64,000 nt of DNA from a virus (taxonomy: Duplodnaviria; Caudoviricetes), in IMG/VR virus record IMGVR_UViG_2836880742_000002, positions 1-64,000 of that record; one strand, given 5' to 3'. Positions 1,888 to 59,335 of the stretch are shown here, in pieces. Position numbers and translations under genes: made by a program. The number at the start of each line of letters is the position of its first letter. Positions within the stretch are counted from its first letter, which is position 1. A model generated the notes under the pieces. The model did no database searches. It was given only the letters and a program-made list of their open reading frames with translations, and had not been told where the DNA came from.

Positions 1888-1957
1888 AATTAAATCTATT
1901 TAATCCGGCCAATATTAACCGTATCACAAAAATATGGATACATGGCGAATAAAAAAA

Positions 1958-2251
1958 TCAGTTCTTTCCCAACTCATTCCCGATTCTTTCCCGATATATT
2001 CCCATCATTTTCCCGCACCTCACACGCGAAGAAAAATTGGACAGCATATAGTTTACCGCGCGTTTCGTCTTGTGCACCAATAATGCAATCCGGGAAGGGT
2101 AGAAGCCCTCCTTGGAAAGGAAATACACGAGAAGGTAACGCGCATCAACCACCTCCGTTTCCTTGCTTCCCGACAATATGATTCTTGGTGAAATCTCCGT
2201 TTCCCTGCTGACAACCTGAATAATCTCATTAAAAATATCTTCCTTGCACAT
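1958..2251 (-). CDS. Small HTH protein resembling the DnaA C-terminal domain
   Basis: IIQVVS...ILSGSKETEVVDARYLLVYFL...IALLVHKT pattern. Confidence 0.6.
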   Translation of the reverse strand: MCKEDIFNEIIQVVSRETEISPRIILSGSKETEVVDARYLLVYFLSKEGFYPSRIALLVHKTKRAVNYMLSNFSSRVRCGKMMGIYRERIGNELGKN

Positions 2252-2272
2252 ACAAAATCCGATTTTTATTCA

Positions 2273-2280
2273 TATCTTTG
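2273..2280 (+). promoter_or_regulatory. Bacteroidetes -7 promoter box
   Basis: TATCTTTG matches TAnnTTTG; lies immediately before a structured region. Confidence 0.55.
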
Positions 2281-2283
2281 TCA

Positions 2284-2404
2284 TACCACATGACAAGGCG
2301 TTTATATACAACGATAGCTCGCGATGAAGACATAAAGCCCTCAACGCGCGAGCTATTTTCGCGTCTTGTCATGTGGTAATGCAAGGAACGTTGGGGGCTT
2401 TTTT
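2284..2404 (+). ncRNA. Candidate pseudoknotted small RNA
   Basis: Perfect 14-bp (2284-2297/2365-2378) and 10-bp (2314-2323/2347-2356) stems, 13-bp loop-tail pairing (2334-2346/2389-2401), U-tract at the end; three G-U pairs only on + strand. Confidence 0.6.
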
Positions 2405-2431
2405 ATACTCCCGTCCCCGAAGGAGTAAACA

Positions 2432-2875
2432 TTACTTTTTCAGCCTGTACACAAACCTCCCGAATCCTATAAGGATGCAAACGACCACGGCCACGAGCGC
2501 AAAGCCCCCATAGTGCAGCTTCGTTTCCTCCCACCTCGAAAGCTTCCGCTCCACAGGATAAGGCACGCCAACGCTGTCCGTCCTCACCGACACCAACGTG
2601 TCCCTCACCACGCGCTCCCTCCAGTGCGTCCGGTACTTGTATTCCGTCCTATACACCGTGTCCCTCTCCGTCCTCAATTCCACGTGAATCGAATCCTTCA
2701 AGTAAACACTGTCCACAGACCACCGCGCACCATGCACGCTGTCTATCCTCACCGTCTCCACCGGCACGTACTGCACCCGTGCACATCCGCACACGGCAAA
2801 CAACGACAGCCCCACCACGAGCCAGAACACCGGCACCATCAGCCAAGGCCAGAACACTTTAAAAAATCTATTCAT
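2432..2875 (-). CDS. Lipoprotein with C-terminal TM helix; putative unimolecular spanin
   Basis: Hydrophobic signal with lipobox-like AVCGC, C-terminal TM and basic tail; downstream of endolysin; start reassigned to ATG 2875. Confidence 0.6.
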   Translation of the reverse strand: MNRFFKVFWPWLMVPVFWLVVGLSLFAVCGCARVQYVPVETVRIDSVHGARWSVDSVYLKDSIHVELRTERDTVYRTEYKYRTHWRERVVRDTLVSVRTDSVGVPYPVERKLSRWEETKLHYGGFALVAVVVCILIGFGRFVYRLKK

Positions 2876-2899
2876 TCCTACTTCTTTTTGTGGCAACGA

Positions 2900-2940
2900 A
2901 AAAGCGGCAACCCCGACTTGTTTATGTGGGATTGCCGCTT
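2900..2940 (-). terminator. Putative intrinsic terminator after the Panacea pair
   Basis: AAGCGGCAA...TTGCCGCTT stem followed by U-run on the minus strand. Confidence 0.5.
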
Positions 2941-3054
2941 GATTAATGAAATGGTTTCGTGTGGCTTGGTTACTATTCTCCTGATGCAAAATGATAGCCC
3001 GTTGAAACCTACCTTGTGAGCCACGCAAACACGTAGCCTTTCAATTCCAAGGGG

Positions 3055-3438
3055 CTATCTTTTGGGATGGAATAAATATTTTGCGACAAAATTGAATATC
3101 CCTATCACATTGGCCAACGATGTGGTAAGTAGGGTAATAAGTACACTGTCTGACAGTAAGATTGTCCTACGTCCACTTAAATATACGATGACCAAAGAAG
3201 CTAACATATACAAACACATGAATCCAAATATCACGTAACTGAATATTTTCCGTTGCTCACGGTCTTGTTTAAGTCCCTCTATTTCCTCCCTTTGGCGGTC
3301 TATCTGTGCACGCAGGTAGTCTATTGTCAGTTCATTGGACGTTTGTTCCAACAAATTCACCTGTGATTCTTCGGATTCCTCCTTGTCCTTGCCTTCATCA
3401 GAAAGGATTCGCATAAGGTCTTCAAACTTTCCTTTCAT
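3055..3438 (-). CDS. Coiled-coil plus 2-TM protein; putative toxin partner of Panacea
   Basis: 4-nt overlap with the Panacea gene; two hydrophobic helices. Confidence 0.6.
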   Translation of the reverse strand: MKGKFEDLMRILSDEGKDKEESEESQVNLLEQTSNELTIDYLRAQIDRQREEIEGLKQDREQRKIFSYVIFGFMCLYMLASLVIVYLSGRRTILLSDSVLITLLTTSLANVIGIFNFVAKYLFHPKR

Positions 3439-3950
3439 GAATTGTGTGACTTTAATACAGTTTCAACAAGCTTTTCATAATACAAGGCTGTTACTTCATC
3501 CGGAATGGGAACATTTTGTTCTGGTATATAACAAACAGACCATGGCGTGCCCTTCCGGTGCGTCAAAGCGACCATCTCGGCATCCGTAAAATCAAGGTAA
3601 CGCTTCCATACCATCTCGACAATTTTCTTTGCCTTGTCACCCTCCAACACAGGCTCCGGAAATGAAATCGTACAATTCTTTTCGTCCCAATCCATCACAA
3701 CGGCCTTTTCTGTTATAGGGCCGGCTTTGTATTGCTTGAAAGAATGGTAGACGGATGGAATTACAGGCCCGTATTTCCATGCCTCCACCTTGTCAAAACG
3801 GTTGTCAAGCAAAGATTCTTTGTTTATCGCCAAAGAGAATCCGTGAGCTATATAGACACGTTTCATCAAACCTAATTGCGTCAGGTTCTTATTCTCCTTT
3901 TTTGCTAAATCAATGAGATAATTAGCCACAGAAAGTGCATTATCTTTCAT
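3435..3950 (-). CDS. Panacea (DUF4065/SocA-like) antitoxin domain protein
   Basis: VANYLI, EAWKYGPVIPSVY and LTH...PW motifs. Confidence 0.85.
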   Translation of the reverse strand: MKDNALSVANYLIDLAKKENKNLTQLGLMKRVYIAHGFSLAINKESLLDNRFDKVEAWKYGPVIPSVYHSFKQYKAGPITEKAVVMDWDEKNCTISFPEPVLEGDKAKKIVEMVWKRYLDFTDAEMVALTHRKGTPWSVCYIPEQNVPIPDEVTALYYEKLVETVLKSHNS

Positions 3951-4087
3951 ATTTTAACATTTGAATAGGACAAAAATAGAGTAAATTGTCCATCTTTCCA
4001 AGTTTGTTAAGCCTTATTTGTCTTCATTAACTGCAATCCCACCAAGTCAAAGATCGCTTCCCCGCCACCGGGTTAATAATCATTCAT

Positions 4088-4222
4088 TCACATCGCCAAC
4101 GCCCGTGCCAACATCCAGACACCAAAAGCCAACACGAGGAAGACCAACCAAGGCGGCAAACCCTTCCCGTCGCCCCCTCCGCCGTCGTCAAGCATCGGCC
4201 AGTATTCATCACTCGTTCCCAT
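4088..4222 (-). CDS. 44-aa single-TM protein (absent from the ORF track)
   Basis: MGTSDEYWPMLDDGGGGDGKGLPPWLVFLVLAFGVWMLARALAM, starts 2 nt after the endolysin stop. Confidence 0.5.
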   Translation of the reverse strand: MGTSDEYWPMLDDGGGGDGKGLPPWLVFLVLAFGVWMLARALAM

Positions 4223-4224
4223 GT

Positions 4225-4668
4225 TCACGCGATATTAAAGAACCTGTCAGCCTCCCATTTCCTGCGCTTCACCAGTCCGTCAAGCTTCCGCTTCTTCCCG
4301 GCCACCGTGGCATACACCCACCTCATGAACTCCGCACGCACCTCCGCATCCGGCGCGCAAGCCCGTATTTTCTTCAAAAGTGTGGAACCGGCCAACGCGT
4401 CGCACCCAAGGTTGTACGCGAAGTCCACCAATGCGTCGAACTTGTTCTGCCGCTCCGTCACGCCTAATTTGTCCACGAATGCCTCATATTCTGCCAAGTC
4501 GCGCCTGAGCTGCCGTTCCGCTTCGCCCTCCGTCATCTTGTCGCCGCGCTTCACGCCAACCGTATGTCCGTAGCCTATCGTCCACACGCCCGCCGGGCAC
4601 TTGTAAGCCGTGCCACGGAAACCCTCGAATCTCTTTATCGCCTCAATCAATGTGTTGCTCGCTTTCAT
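4225..4668 (-). CDS. Endolysin, GH24 phage lysozyme
   Basis: IKRFEG...AYKCPAGVWTIGYGHT, FDALVDFAYNLG, GLVKRRKWE. Confidence 0.93.
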   Translation of the reverse strand: MKASNTLIEAIKRFEGFRGTAYKCPAGVWTIGYGHTVGVKRGDKMTEGEAERQLRRDLAEYEAFVDKLGVTERQNKFDALVDFAYNLGCDALAGSTLLKKIRACAPDAEVRAEFMRWVYATVAGKKRKLDGLVKRRKWEADRFFNIA

Positions 4669-5483: not shown

Positions 5484-6425
5484 ATGAAAACAACCAGAAA
5501 ATGCAGTTTTTGCGGCAAGTCATTTGTAACCCGGAGCGGGGTACAGAAATATTGCAGCGAGGCTTGTCAGGCGGAAGCCAAACGAGCCAGAACGGAACAG
5601 AAAAACAATCTTTTCAAAGTCGCCCAACCCTTGATGGAGATACAGCATCAGGAGTATCTCACCTTTTCCAAAGCAGCCACGCTCATGGGCTGTTCCCGGC
5701 AGTATGTTTACAAACTTGTAGCCCTCGGCAAGCTGAAAGCCTCACGCATCAGCAACCGCATGGCATTCATCCGCAAGGCAGACATCGAGCGGATGCTGGA
5801 GGGCAACCCTTACCATCGTGTCCTGCCCGGCTGCACTTCCACACCGAAAAAAGCCGCTTCATCTTCTTTGCCTGCCAAAAGAGAAAAGAGGGAAAAGGAT
5901 ATAGATGAAGTAATGGACTTCTATTCAGGTGAGAATGTGATGTCGCTCTTCAAGGTCAAGCAGTCGTGGCTCTATACCACCGCCAAGCGTAACCGCATCC
6001 CCATCTGCCGCATCGCTGGGAAGAACTATTACAGCAAGAAGCATGTTGACGAGTTTTTCGGTGTGGCTGTAGATACAAGCAATATCACTGACTGGCTCCT
6101 GATTGAAGAAGCGGAAGAACTGTTCGGCATGAAGCCGACCGCACTCCGGGCATACGCCCACCGCCACAAGATACCGACCAAAAGAGAATACGGGCGCACC
6201 TACTACTCCAAATCCCATTTGGATGAACTCCGCAGGACAGACCTCATAAACGATGAACGCTACTACACCGTGGAACAAGTCCGGCAGATTTACGGGCTTT
6301 CCTCAGCCAACATCAGCCATATCGTCAAGGTGAAGCGCATCGAAAAGATAAAGGTCGGAGTGAAAAACCTGCTTTTGCGCTCCGATGTGGAGCGTGTCAT
6401 GGCTGAAAGGGAGAAACAACCGTGA
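5484..6425 (+). CDS. Zn-finger plus multiple excisionase-type HTH DNA-binding protein
   Basis: CxxC...CxxxC N-terminus, then repeated YLTFSKAA/WLLIEEA/YYTVEQV HTH units. Confidence 0.75.
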   Translation: MKTTRKCSFCGKSFVTRSGVQKYCSEACQAEAKRARTEQKNNLFKVAQPLMEIQHQEYLTFSKAATLMGCSRQYVYKLVALGKLKASRISNRMAFIRKADIERMLEGNPYHRVLPGCTSTPKKAASSSLPAKREKREKDIDEVMDFYSGENVMSLFKVKQSWLYTTAKRNRIPICRIAGKNYYSKKHVDEFFGVAVDTSNITDWLLIEEAEELFGMKPTALRAYAHRHKIPTKREYGRTYYSKSHLDELRRTDLINDERYYTVEQVRQIYGLSSANISHIVKVKRIEKIKVGVKNLLLRSDVERVMAEREKQP

Positions 6426-6559: not shown

Positions 6560-7678
6560 ATGAGCAAATGCAAGACAGTTACCTTGCGCAAGCGCAAGAT
6601 TAAGAACGGTACACAGTATTCGCTGTGTCTGGACTATTATCCCGGCTATCGTGACAACACCACCATGAAAGTGATTACACGTGAAGCTCTGGGAATTTAC
6701 ATTTTCGCCAAACCCGCCAATCAGCAGGAGCGTGACTTCAACGCACGCATGATGAAAAAGGCGGAGATACTTCGCAACAGGCGTTACGAAGCCATCTTCA
6801 ACGAAAATAACGGCTTCTTTGACAAAGCCAGGATGAAAGGGGATTTCCTCGCCTACTTCAAGGAGCTGGCAGAGAGGAAGAATATCAAGTGGCAGCACGT
6901 TTACAAGCACTTCGAGCGGTTCGTGAACGGCAAATGTACCTTTGAGGAGGTGGACGTGGACTTGTGCCGCAAGTTTATGGAATACCTGCTTAACGCACCC
7001 CAATCCATACACACCAACCAAAAACTGCATGTCAATTCTGCGGCAGGCTACTGGTCGGCTTTCCGTGCGGTACTTCACACCGCCTACCGGGACAGGAAGA
7101 TAAAGGAGAACCCAAACGGATTCTTAGACCGCATCGAGTGTATTCCCACCATGAGGGAACATCTGAGCCAAGAGGAACTGATATGGCTTGCCGAAACCCC
7201 TTGCGAGGAAGATGTCTTGAAAAGGGCTTTTCTTTTCGCCTGCCTGACCGGACTGCGGAAGAGCGACATCAGGCAGCTCACTTGGCAGCAGATACAGCCG
7301 TACACCAACGGTAAGATGTTTGTGACCACCCGTATGCAGAAGACGAAGCAGATTGTACACAACCCCATCAGTGATGAAGCCTACGGGCTGCTCGGAGAAC
7401 GGTGCGAGGGGCTTATCTTTGACGGATTCAAGGACAAGATGCTTCAAGGACCGCTCAAACGCTGGCTCTTGGCGGCAGGCATTACCAAGAAGATAACCTT
7501 TCACTGCACCCGGCATTCATTCGGAAGCCTGCACGTGGAAATGGGTACGGACATGGCTGTCATACAAGCCTATATGGGACACAAGAACATTACCACCACA
7601 CAGATTTATTCCAAGATGGCGGCACAGCAGATGTGCGAGGTCGTGGACAAGATAACCCTGAAACGCAAGGAGACATAA
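6560..7678 (+). CDS. int: Tyrosine integrase of the element
   Basis: TGLRKSD, K, HCTRHSF, MGH...TTQIY catalytic residues. Confidence 0.93.
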   Translation: MSKCKTVTLRKRKIKNGTQYSLCLDYYPGYRDNTTMKVITREALGIYIFAKPANQQERDFNARMMKKAEILRNRRYEAIFNENNGFFDKARMKGDFLAYFKELAERKNIKWQHVYKHFERFVNGKCTFEEVDVDLCRKFMEYLLNAPQSIHTNQKLHVNSAAGYWSAFRAVLHTAYRDRKIKENPNGFLDRIECIPTMREHLSQEELIWLAETPCEEDVLKRAFLFACLTGLRKSDIRQLTWQQIQPYTNGKMFVTTRMQKTKQIVHNPISDEAYGLLGERCEGLIFDGFKDKMLQGPLKRWLLAAGITKKITFHCTRHSFGSLHVEMGTDMAVIQAYMGHKNITTTQIYSKMAAQQMCEVVDKITLKRKET

Positions 7679-34300: not shown

Positions 34301-34378
34301 ATTACCAAAAGGGCCGTGCATCTTCACACAGTATATTTATTGCCAAATATACAAATAATATTTGAAATCCAATCACTT

Positions 34379-44383: not shown

Positions 44384-44546
44384 TTAGTTAAAAACACGAA
44401 TAGCCTGCGCAGCAACGTATGCCAACAGACTATCCGTGTAGAACTAACCTCAAACAATGGAAGGTTTAAATGTGATTTTGCTTGCATTTGCAATATATCA
44501 CAACGACAAGTTCTGTGGCGTACATCTTCATACGCATTTCTTATGA

Positions 44547-44576
44547 CAAAGATAATAAAAATGATTGAAAAACAAA
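44547..44576 (-). promoter_or_regulatory. Promoter of the head operon
   Basis: TTTG-N18-TATCTTTG on the minus strand. Confidence 0.6.
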
Positions 44577-51173: not shown

Positions 51174-51324
51174 AGACTAGTATCGTACTCCTTCATACGG
51201 TGATGGTTATAACTTCTGCAAAGTTATAAATTTCGATTGAATAACAATCGTTTTTATAAAAAAGAAAACGCAACTATCAAAGTAATTGCGTTATTATAAT
51301 ATTATAAGTTTTATCCGTCAAATT

Positions 51325-59228: not shown

Positions 59229-59265
59229 ATTCTTGGGTTGTATATAACTTCATATACTTTATTTG

Positions 59266-59335
59266 AGCGGAAACAGGGAATCGAACCCCACTCTTTGGCT
59301 GGAATGCCAACGCTCTACCGATGAGCTATTTCCGC
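59266..59335 (-). tRNA. tRNA-Gly(UCC)-like with non-canonical 6-nt anticodon loop
   Basis: GCGGAAA/TTTCCGC-T, GCTC/GAGC, TTGGC-ATTCCA-GCCAA, TGGGG-TTCGATT-CCCTG. Confidence 0.8.

Follow-up and report, generated by a model that had tools for sequence, protein, structure and literature searches.

A candidate self-terminating antisense RNA gene with a loop-tail pseudoknot, opposite the end of a prophage lysis operon

What are a promoter box, two long stems and a run of T doing between two phage genes that are both read in the opposite direction? The locus that raises this question occupies positions 2273-2404 of a stretch of 64,000 nucleotides (nt), the window, which comprises bases 1-64000 of the 88,508-base provirus IMGVR_UViG_2836880742_000002, very probably a gut Bacteroidales prophage. 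The element sits in the 180-base gap that leads from a spanin-like lysis gene to a gene for a small helix-turn-helix (HTH) protein. Every plausible gene around it lies on the minus strand, and the strand of the presumed RNA (+) is the opposite one. An earlier note, made from the sequence alone, had taken the element for an antisense, pseudoknotted small RNA of the + strand that acts as a decoy for a factor binding the hairpins of late genes. The RNA has stood up well, in that about ten sequence types keep the fold with compensatory changes and carry their wobble pairs always on the + strand; the decoy function has not. That a genuine gene for an RNA of ~120 nt lies here is, on the sequence evidence, very likely. 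As to what this RNA is for, the complete explanation towards which we lean, tentatively, is an independent, self-terminating cis-antisense RNA gene at the junction of the lysis operon and an accessory gene.

Build of the element in the window

The element in the window belongs to the sequence type designated A, and its parts are the following.

2273..2280, + strand: -7 promoter box TATCTTTG (consensus TAnnTTTG), recognised from the sequence; transcription would start at ~2284-2288
2284..2301, + strand: 5' arm of the outer stem P1, pairing with 2361-2378 over 18 base pairs (bp), including 2 G.U
2302..2312, + strand: J1/2, a one-sided 11-nt bulge with CAAC at its end, the proposed hinge that folds P2 back along P1
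2313..2323, + strand: 5' arm of the inner stem P2, pairing with 2347-2357 over 11 bp, including G2313.U2357
2324..2333, + strand: unpaired 5' part of the apical loop, AUGAAGACAU, recognised from the sequence
2334..2346, + strand: 5' strand of the pseudoknot (X), which abuts the 3' arm of P2 directly and pairs with 2389-2401
2347..2357, + strand: 3' arm of P2, pairing with 2313-2323
2361..2378, + strand: 3' arm of P1, pairing with 2284-2301
2379..2388, + strand: unpaired linker, the one place of the core with free variation inside type A
2389..2404, + strand: 3' strand of the pseudoknot (X', 2389-2401) running into T6 (2399-2404), the proposed intrinsic terminator

The sigma-ABfr -7 consensus of Bacteroidetes is given as TAnnTTTG in passages of PMC7366714, and TATCTTTG at 2273-2280 agrees with it. 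In the -33 region of the + strand (~2245-2256) there is no TTTG, only a T-rich run, GATTTTTATTCA; passages of the same source state that a -33 motif was not recovered in another member of the Bacteroidetes (PMC7366714). The longer word TATCTTTGTCATA, which the earlier note had described as shared with the promoter of the head operon, does recur exactly at 44542-44554(-), and there are three matches at no more than one mismatch against 0.14 expected. Downstream of the box, P1 has a perfect 14-bp core (2284-2297/2365-2378) and reaches 18 bp by way of G2298.U2364 and U2301.G2361, and P2 has a perfect 10-bp core (2314-2323/2347-2356) that is extended by G2313.U2357, a pair that is A-U in A2 variants. 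The apical loop spans 2324-2346. Its 3' 13 bases form the loop-tail helix (2334-2346/2389-2401), which comprises 13 bp with a single wobble, U2341.G2394, and leaves no gap to T6 at 2399-2404. Box, nested 14-bp and 10-bp stems, 13-bp loop-tail pairing and U-tract all lie where the earlier note had placed them, and the loop begins with AUGAAGACAU at 2324-2333, as it had said. Its three G-U pairs possible on the + strand only are indeed confined to that strand, and their number is four; each is an A.C mismatch on the minus strand.

Loop bases that pair outside their hairpin, with covariation, are what defines an H-type pseudoknot, and the loop-tail helix shows both. It also has the sequence hallmark of an intrinsic terminator, a stable helix 0-2 nt before a U-run, at T6 2399-2404, although a scan with a simple terminator pattern did not list it. 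Judging from this arrangement, the pseudoknot is probably the terminator of the RNA. The word CAACG occurs twice in the element, at the end of the bulge (2309-2313) and at the end of the loop strand (2342-2346), while CGTTG, complementary to it, is found once, where the tail starts (2389-2393); the bulge of other types also ends in (C/G)AAC. These repeats hint at a further alternative pairing.

The fold is not what would be expected of a sequence of this composition. The + strand folds at -47.8 kcal/mol (z -5.35), and 0/200 shuffles fold as well. The loop-tail duplex alone amounts to -21.5 kcal/mol, a value equalled in 2/2000 shuffled loops. A descriptor of the architecture required a hairpin of at least 8 bp, a segment abutting its 3' arm and, before T5+, a 9-nt tail complementary to that segment. 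Run over ~3.5 Mb on both strands, duplicates included, it matched only this element and its counterpart of type B, in 15 distinct sequences that each have a TAnnTTTG box. Wobble pairs were counted in 17 sequences: each has 1-6 G.U on the + strand and no A.C 1x1 mismatch, in a run in which the pseudoknot was over-extended, and a hand check gave at least 12 distinct wobble positions, all on the + strand. The Rfam search that the earlier note had called for brought up no Rfam 15 family for the element. The whole window at the gathering threshold yielded only a tRNA (59266-59335(-)), nine loci of other types yielded no match, and at E <=10 the hits were at chance level (the best being mir-5470 at 17.8 bits against a threshold of 98, Srn266 at 30.5 against 63). 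Named phage relatives were sought by blastn with the element and by megablast with 20 kb of a complete type-B phage against the phage collection, and nothing was returned.

Conservation of the fold and replacement of its sequence

Within type A the element is extremely constant. It is present in 24/24 full viral loci that encode the 97-amino-acid (aa) HTH protein, and it also adjoins spanin homologues that are just 34-54% identical. Paraprevotella xylaniphila YIT 11841 holds a copy identical at 141/141 positions, and thus a named, cultured host carries the element. Compared with eight relatives, the 120-base core (2285-2404) is identical at 119/120 positions in six, at 117/120 in L024 and at 109/120 in L103, whereas the flanks in the same comparisons are 89-92% (HTH gene), 82-85% (the 33-base spacer) and 61-83% (spanin gene) identical. 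By these identities the core is under strong purifying selection. In L103 a compensatory change turns a G-C of P1 into A-U; two of its other changes lengthen P2 and one converts G.U into G.G, the linker carries a 4-5 nt insertion and substitutions, and loop and tail are unchanged.

The site is occupied by about ten sequence types (A-I) in all, each of which opposes the two co-directional genes on either side. Common to every type are the box, the two stems, the loop-tail helix and the U-tract, and the sequences of the stems are replaced with full compensation. In the box, just the two free positions vary (TACCTTTG, TAATTTTG, TAACTTTG, TATTTTTG, TACTTTTG). Type B is unrelated in sequence and of the same build, and it stands behind the same conserved hairpin after the spanin gene: it has the box TAATTTTG or TAACTTTG, a P1 of 13 bp, a P2 of 17-20 bp that is wholly different between the subtypes B1 and B2, and a loop that pairs through its 3' end, UCCCCGGCAC, with the tail, GUGCCGGGGA, before a U-run. 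Types C, D, E and F were found through homologues of the HTH gene at ~61% identity, G and H through a further query, and I when Bacteroidales genomes were searched with a model; P0031 as a query gave no locus. Type I adjoins a Dam-like methylase gene instead of the HTH gene. The RNA family is a common one: more than 553 viral stretches encode relatives of the HTH gene, and the comparison drew on 108 loci (80 + 28). Among 57 relatives at ~61%, one has no upstream sequence, and 55 of the other 56 have the full RNA. Gene order at the type-C locus is that of the window (endolysin-like, spanin-like, opposing RNA, HTH gene, glycine-rich protein). In a complete type-B phage of 43.9 kb the RNA follows the lysis genes and precedes an open reading frame (ORF) of 77 aa and three more ORFs, beyond which a 409-aa ORF, read as an integrase from its sequence, lies on the other strand. 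Between types A and B, the small proteins encoded downstream show no BLASTP similarity, and neither do the products of the next genes.

That these types share one fold is best seen with a covariance model, R1, built from types C, E, F, G and H only, without A, B and D. It finds type A (64 bits), D (48) and B (21-24) at full length and on the expected strand, the reverse strand scoring far lower. Under strict filters, with only 20 candidates scored per genome, it matched 2/151 sampled Bacteroidales genomes, a poor guide to the spread of the RNA in cellular genomes. MAFFT alignments across types were structurally inconsistent, and the model-based alignment was used with our own counts. Its 20 forward rows were fitted to P1 and P2, which biases the counts for those two stems upward, and not that for the pseudoknot. 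P1 has 210/212 canonical cells with 8/11 pairs changed on both sides, P2 has 217/222 with 11/13, and the pseudoknot, which is outside the model, has 202/220 with 3/11; for each of the three, 0/500 shuffles reach the observed paired share. The covariation that the earlier note had wanted to see in the pseudoknot is therefore present, and individual types corroborate it. Type E has matched insertions in both pseudoknot strands, type F has a G-C to A-U change plus one added pair, and types B, D and I have different loop-tail helices. A U-run follows the helix by 0-2 nt in other types. Even a plain MAFFT alignment of ten other-type sequences gives the loop-tail helix as the main consensus helix in RNAalifold. 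Types A, C, E, F, G, H and I have a 5'-side bulge of 7-13 nt, which from the geometry we take for a hinge that brings the apical loop within reach of the tail at the foot of P1. Since conservation across the family, covariation and strand-specific wobbles all point the same way, we conclude that an RNA of the + strand with this fold is under selection. Box, stems, pseudoknot, strand and family are all supported by sequence and comparison, and the RNA very probably belongs to a large undescribed family.

The manner in which the types replace each other is peculiar. Between types C and D, the HTH gene agrees at 288/291 positions and the next 300 nt at 300/300, whereas the RNA agrees at only 102/148 (69%); types C, D and F encode one and the same HTH protein. 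With flanks 99-100% identical and the RNA exchanged between types, the types look like cassette alleles, and invariance within a type combined with wholesale replacement between types has the look of specificity cassettes. Such a pattern usually marks determinants of specificity or immunity.

Antisense RNA, switch or scaffold

How might such an RNA act? A sigma-ABfr-type -7 box (2273-2280) would start transcription at the foot of P1, and the RNA of ~117-120 nt would fold into P1 (18 bp) and P2 (11 bp), joined by the one-sided 11-nt bulge. The emerging tail would then pair with the 3' half of the apical loop, forming an H-type pseudoknot without a spacer to P2, and this 13-bp G+C-rich helix directly before U6 would be the RNA's own intrinsic terminator. 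Being fully complementary to the intercistronic stretch of read-through late transcripts, the RNA could pair in cis with sense transcripts of the same type and cut them off or destabilise them, and its action would be type-specific, possibly extending to related co-infecting phages. The start site, termination at the pseudoknot, expression and the antisense function are steps that we infer. That the RNA works as a cis-antisense RNA seems quite possible from its position and conservation, and we propose it with caution. It always runs against two co-directional genes, and the downstream gene starts 15-22 bases from its box. Since the sense strand has no exact TAnnTTTG within 260 nt upstream of that gene in 11/11 loci, the gene is probably fed by late-operon read-through that crosses the complement of the RNA. 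One contig of an RNA library spans 1954-3100, a weak indication, as carry-over of DNA is possible. Assembled contigs of four of 16 runs comprise one long contig over the element and short ones of low depth beside it; as contigs give no strand, ends or level, they speak neither for nor against a small RNA. A cis-antisense RNA changes its target whenever it changes itself, which fits the cassette pattern.

Several observations weigh against this antisense proposal, or against the RNA gene itself. The RNA would start ~33 nt upstream of the downstream ATG, leaving the start codon uncovered, and the downstream gene varies (HTH, 77-aa ORF, Dam-like methylase). The HTH protein is identical across RNA types, so that no partner appears to co-evolve with the RNA. 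The conserved unpaired words and the alternative pairing described below suggest more than a plain antisense RNA would need, and by its geometry the pseudoknot would require the rod to fold back on itself. As for the fold, the minus strand reaches -50.1 kcal/mol (z -6.41), about equal to the + strand, and folding energy alone therefore cannot pick the strand; it is the wobble pairs, which become A.C mismatches on the minus strand, that distinguish the two. Within type A alone, where variation is too small for a covariation test, covariation is not significant (one doubly changed pair, with 84/500 shuffles as high). In L024 (= L050 = L092, one contig) CATG has become CACG in both arms of P1, creating two mismatches. 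The whole module is missing in some relatives (L077, L112), L257 lacks the 3' half, and in the type-B contig L073 an inverted block, consisting of the loop and the inner part of P2, has lost the loop-tail complementarity and with it the pseudoknot. The changes in L024, being same-strand and non-compensatory, also remove two CATG sites together.

It is possible, if rather doubtful, that the RNA acts in trans or binds a protein, as a 'moron' that is expressed from the prophage with its own promoter and terminator and that works through its conserved loop word on host or phage targets, or as a protein scaffold. The unit is self-contained, its neighbouring gene is not constant, and its compact pseudoknotted fold is typical of RNAs that act by shape. 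Moreover, unpaired words are kept while the stems are replaced: a GARGAYAU-like loop, the bulge ending in AAC and a UAAAC linker. However, the loop word is not the same in all types, only short terminator-like matches came from the genome of P. xylaniphila, and eight phage records held no extended complementary site in the sense of an mRNA, the best duplexes (-25 to -27 kcal/mol, scored without a shuffle control) falling on non-coding strands. Trans targets were sought in those eight records with exact 9-mers complementary to the loop and with duplex scans, and only sites antisense to genes emerged. A role as RNA anti-CRISPR or repeat mimic was likewise dropped; the P. xylaniphila genome has one copy and short terminator-like matches, with no repeated, array-like matches.

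A different kind of function is suggested by the loop. Types B, C2, E, F, G, H and I have, on the 5' side of the loop, a segment that repeats the tail strand in weakened form (for instance CGUUGAAGAU vs CGUUGGGGGC). This segment can pair with the 3' half of the loop strand and so extend P2, and in type F the three strands covary (AUGUUG, CAACAU, AUGUUG). From their sequences, these competing pairings resemble either an attenuator or a pathway of folding on which a placeholder gives way to the tail. If the former, a signal that favours pairing within the loop would block the terminator, and the + transcript would run antisense into the lysis genes; with no + strand gene downstream, such read-through would be purely antisense to the spanin and endolysin genes. 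The alternative pairing and the three-way covariation of type F speak for such a switch, which we nonetheless regard as decidedly unlikely. The window's own type A has a degenerate remnant, CGAUGAAGAC, without an in-register extension of P2 (A2324 faces G2346), and so lacks the mutually exclusive pairings of an attenuator. The regulated gene that an attenuator would precede is also missing from the + strand downstream, where the only ORFs are antisense to the spanin gene. P1 plays no part in the exchange, no sensor or ligand is evident, and in L312 the convergent gene is a 409-aa ORF read as structural, not lysis. A related idea, which we consider unlikely, is that the RNA is a self-reading switch in which the occupier of the loop decides between a short stable RNA and an antisense run into the lysis genes. 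Candidates for this occupier would be the complementary late transcript, a protein such as the reader of the U-GAAGNN-R late hairpins, and the RNA of a same-type phage in a co-infection. If this were true, the cassette types would be specificity alleles of an RNA-based, type-specific system, and that system would control lysis or interfere between related prophages.

The word U-GAAGNN-R brings us to the decoy. The earlier note had linked the loop of the RNA to hairpins that precede late genes, and these hairpins are real.

44518-44554, 34314-34351 and 51184-51226, minus strand: late-promoter U-GAAGNN-R hairpins with 8-nt loops, recognised from the sequence

They belong to minus-strand TAnnTTTG boxes at 44554, 34351 and 51226, which are followed 11-19 bases later by stems of 4-5 bp with the loops UGAAGAUG, UGAAGAUG and UGAAGGAG, respectively. 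The first and last loop bases could always pair, which leaves a GAAGNN hexaloop. The same motif stands on different stems after promoters in three other records (G014, G015, G016), and the stems covary across sites and phages (gcgta/tacgc, ctgtg/cacgg, gcatg/catgc, gtgca/tgcac, among others). Another hairpin of this form, the fourth, is gtata-TGAAGTTA-tatac at 59240-59257, just after a tRNA gene. The hairpins look like a promoter-proximal RNA signal, maybe for an antiterminator; they recall the short purine-loop hairpins that are read by antiterminators of the lambda type. A decoy RNA would display the late-hairpin word in its loop and titrate the factor that binds there. Besides the hairpins and their covarying stems, this idea can draw on the UGAAGAY in the loops of types A, C, F, G and H; types B, D, E and I have other loop words. 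Among the types other than A, words related to AUGAAGACAU at this place are GUUGAAGAUAUU, CCGAGGAUAU and GUAAGGAUAUU. The distribution of the hairpins makes a decoy highly improbable, though still conceivable in this one phage. Only 4/13 RNA-bearing records (G000, G014, G015, G016) have promoter-proximal hairpins. They are missing from G001-G005 (type A, 71-86% complete) and G012 and G013 (type C, 56-59% complete), and also from G006 and G007, both type B and rated complete; incomplete records could hide hairpins, but the two complete ones cannot. With the RNA in all 13 records and the hairpins in four, the RNA must be independent of the hairpins. Its word also has no 5-bp closing stem of the kind found in the late hairpins, and GAAGAC can be explained more plainly as a weakened copy of the tail strand.

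Finally, the conserved feature might not be a + strand RNA but a DNA-level element (an operator, an invertible switch or an origin) or a structure of the sense mRNA (an RNase III site or a terminator), which we regard as very improbable. The minus strand does fold equally well, and a U-run comes after P2 on the sense strand of type B; in type A neither stem has one behind it on that strand. On the + strand, every type retains the box and the U-tract, and the wobble pairs are all on it. A palindrome that overlaps the box, TTGTCAT-N5-ATGACAA, could be taken for an operator, but it is lost elsewhere (TTGTCAA in A2, TTGTCAC...ATAACAA in L103) while the long-range pairs of P1 are compensated instead, and it was rejected as not conserved. 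An invertible switch is brought to mind by L073 (14607-14768), which differs from L069 (3683-3848), also of type B, only by the exact inversion of a 37-nt block that includes the loop and is bounded by the 12-nt arms of P2. The inverted state was found in 1/7 distinct type-B sequences and in none of the type-A sequences compared, and the block holds no promoter. The inversion may have arisen as a flip-flop mutation, given the long inverted repeat, or it may be a genuine switch.

The cis-antisense gene that we favour would have partial parallels. Passages of PMC7366714 describe DonS, a group of Bacteroides cis-antisense RNAs of 78-128 nt that lie divergent to homologues of susC and are reported to lower their expression. 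The likeness, so far as those passages go, extends to the phylum, the size range, the possession of an own promoter and the divergent position directly upstream of a gene on the other strand (PMC7366714). No relation in sequence or through Rfam was found, however, and the element here is phage-borne, has a varying partner gene and carries the loop-tail pseudoknot. In other phages, P22 sar covers the ribosome site of the downstream gene and lambda OOP covers the 3' end of cII. Both resemble the element as short RNAs with their own promoter, directed against an operon, complementary to a junction and ended by an intrinsic terminator, but the RNA of the element covers neither a start codon nor coding sequence and is far more structured. 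The immunity RNAs c4 of P1/P7 and CI of P4 are excised from a leader transcript and act on genes that follow on the same strand, the pairing in P4 terminating transcription. As in the element, a loop of a structured phage RNA pairs with a complementary part farther along the transcript, and the two paired sequences covary between related phages, in discrete types of specificity; but the partner of the element's loop is its own 3' end, and no gene of the same strand follows. A canonical Rho-independent terminator likewise has a G+C-rich helix directly before a U-tract; in the element 42 nt separate the two strands, and the 5' one belongs to the loop of a different hairpin, which makes the helix a pseudoknot. 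The packaging RNA of phi29 is a phage RNA of ~120 nt with a structure that is kept as its sequence diverges and with covarying loop pairings. Size, structure over sequence and loop pairings that are possible between molecules are common to both, but phage type and genome position differ, Rfam gives no match and nothing points to packaging.

Very few small RNAs are known from Bacteroidetes, and neither Rfam nor searches of full texts, which do not extend to the supplementary B. thetaiotaomicron small RNA lists of PMC7366714, brought up one from their temperate phages. For RNA biology, the interest of the element lies in a terminator helix that is at the same time a pseudoknot of apical loop and 3' tail, in the built-in competitor strand, with three-way covariation, that most members hold, and in a swappable cassette that is near-invariant within a type and replaced wholesale between types. 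It also provides a testable handle on how gut prophages control the end of the late operon, or on their mutual interference.

Surroundings of the element

The features next to the element and in the lysis region, most of which are genes of the minus strand, are these.

1958..2251, minus strand: 97-aa protein resembling the C-terminal helix-turn-helix (domain IV) of DnaA (Pfam PF08299, E 4.4e-5, below the curated cut-off)
2406..2427, strand not assigned: second conserved hairpin, TACTCC-CGTCCCCGAA-GGAGTA, in the interval from the U-tract to the spanin-like gene's stop codon
2432..2875, within ORF 2432-3028, minus strand: spanin-like ORF, the last gene of the lysis cassette, upstream on the sense strand, recognised by sequence features
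3055-3438, minus strand: 127-aa membrane protein, beside the Panacea-domain antitoxin
3435-3950, minus strand: Panacea-domain antitoxin, between the endolysin and spanin genes
4225-4668, minus strand: endolysin, from gene annotation

The ATG of the HTH gene is 21 nt from the -7 box of the RNA, and clusters of the protein atlas place its 97-aa product among small phage proteins of the DnaA-domain-IV kind. The product of 2432-2875(-) gave no match in a Pfam search; with its lipobox-like N-terminus and C-terminal membrane helix, it is likely to resemble a unimolecular spanin. The stem of the hairpin at 2406-2427 covaries in four versions, including ATTCT/AGAAT, ACTTCC/GGAAGT and ACCTCT/AGAGGT, and its loop always keeps a run of C that is complementary to the run of G in the tail of the RNA. 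A small ORF of 51 aa at 2229-2384(-) was considered as a type I toxin and rejected, its translation being, by eye, hydrophilic; it is also missing in other types.

Two parts of the region appear to be insertions. In the related record G002 the endolysin and spanin genes are joined by 27 bp, the segment ~2876-4095 being extra in the window, and from its genes this segment looks like a toxin-antitoxin insertion in the lysis cassette. About 20 kb (window ~5024-25484) are also missing from G002, where the flanks are 354 bp apart. This segment has its own excisionase-like gene (5484-6425) and tyrosine integrase (6560-7678) and a differing G+C content, and it is probably a second integrative element within the prophage, between the structural and the lysis genes. 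The tRNA gene at 59266-59335(-), which scores 53 bits in Rfam, lies inside the phage region.

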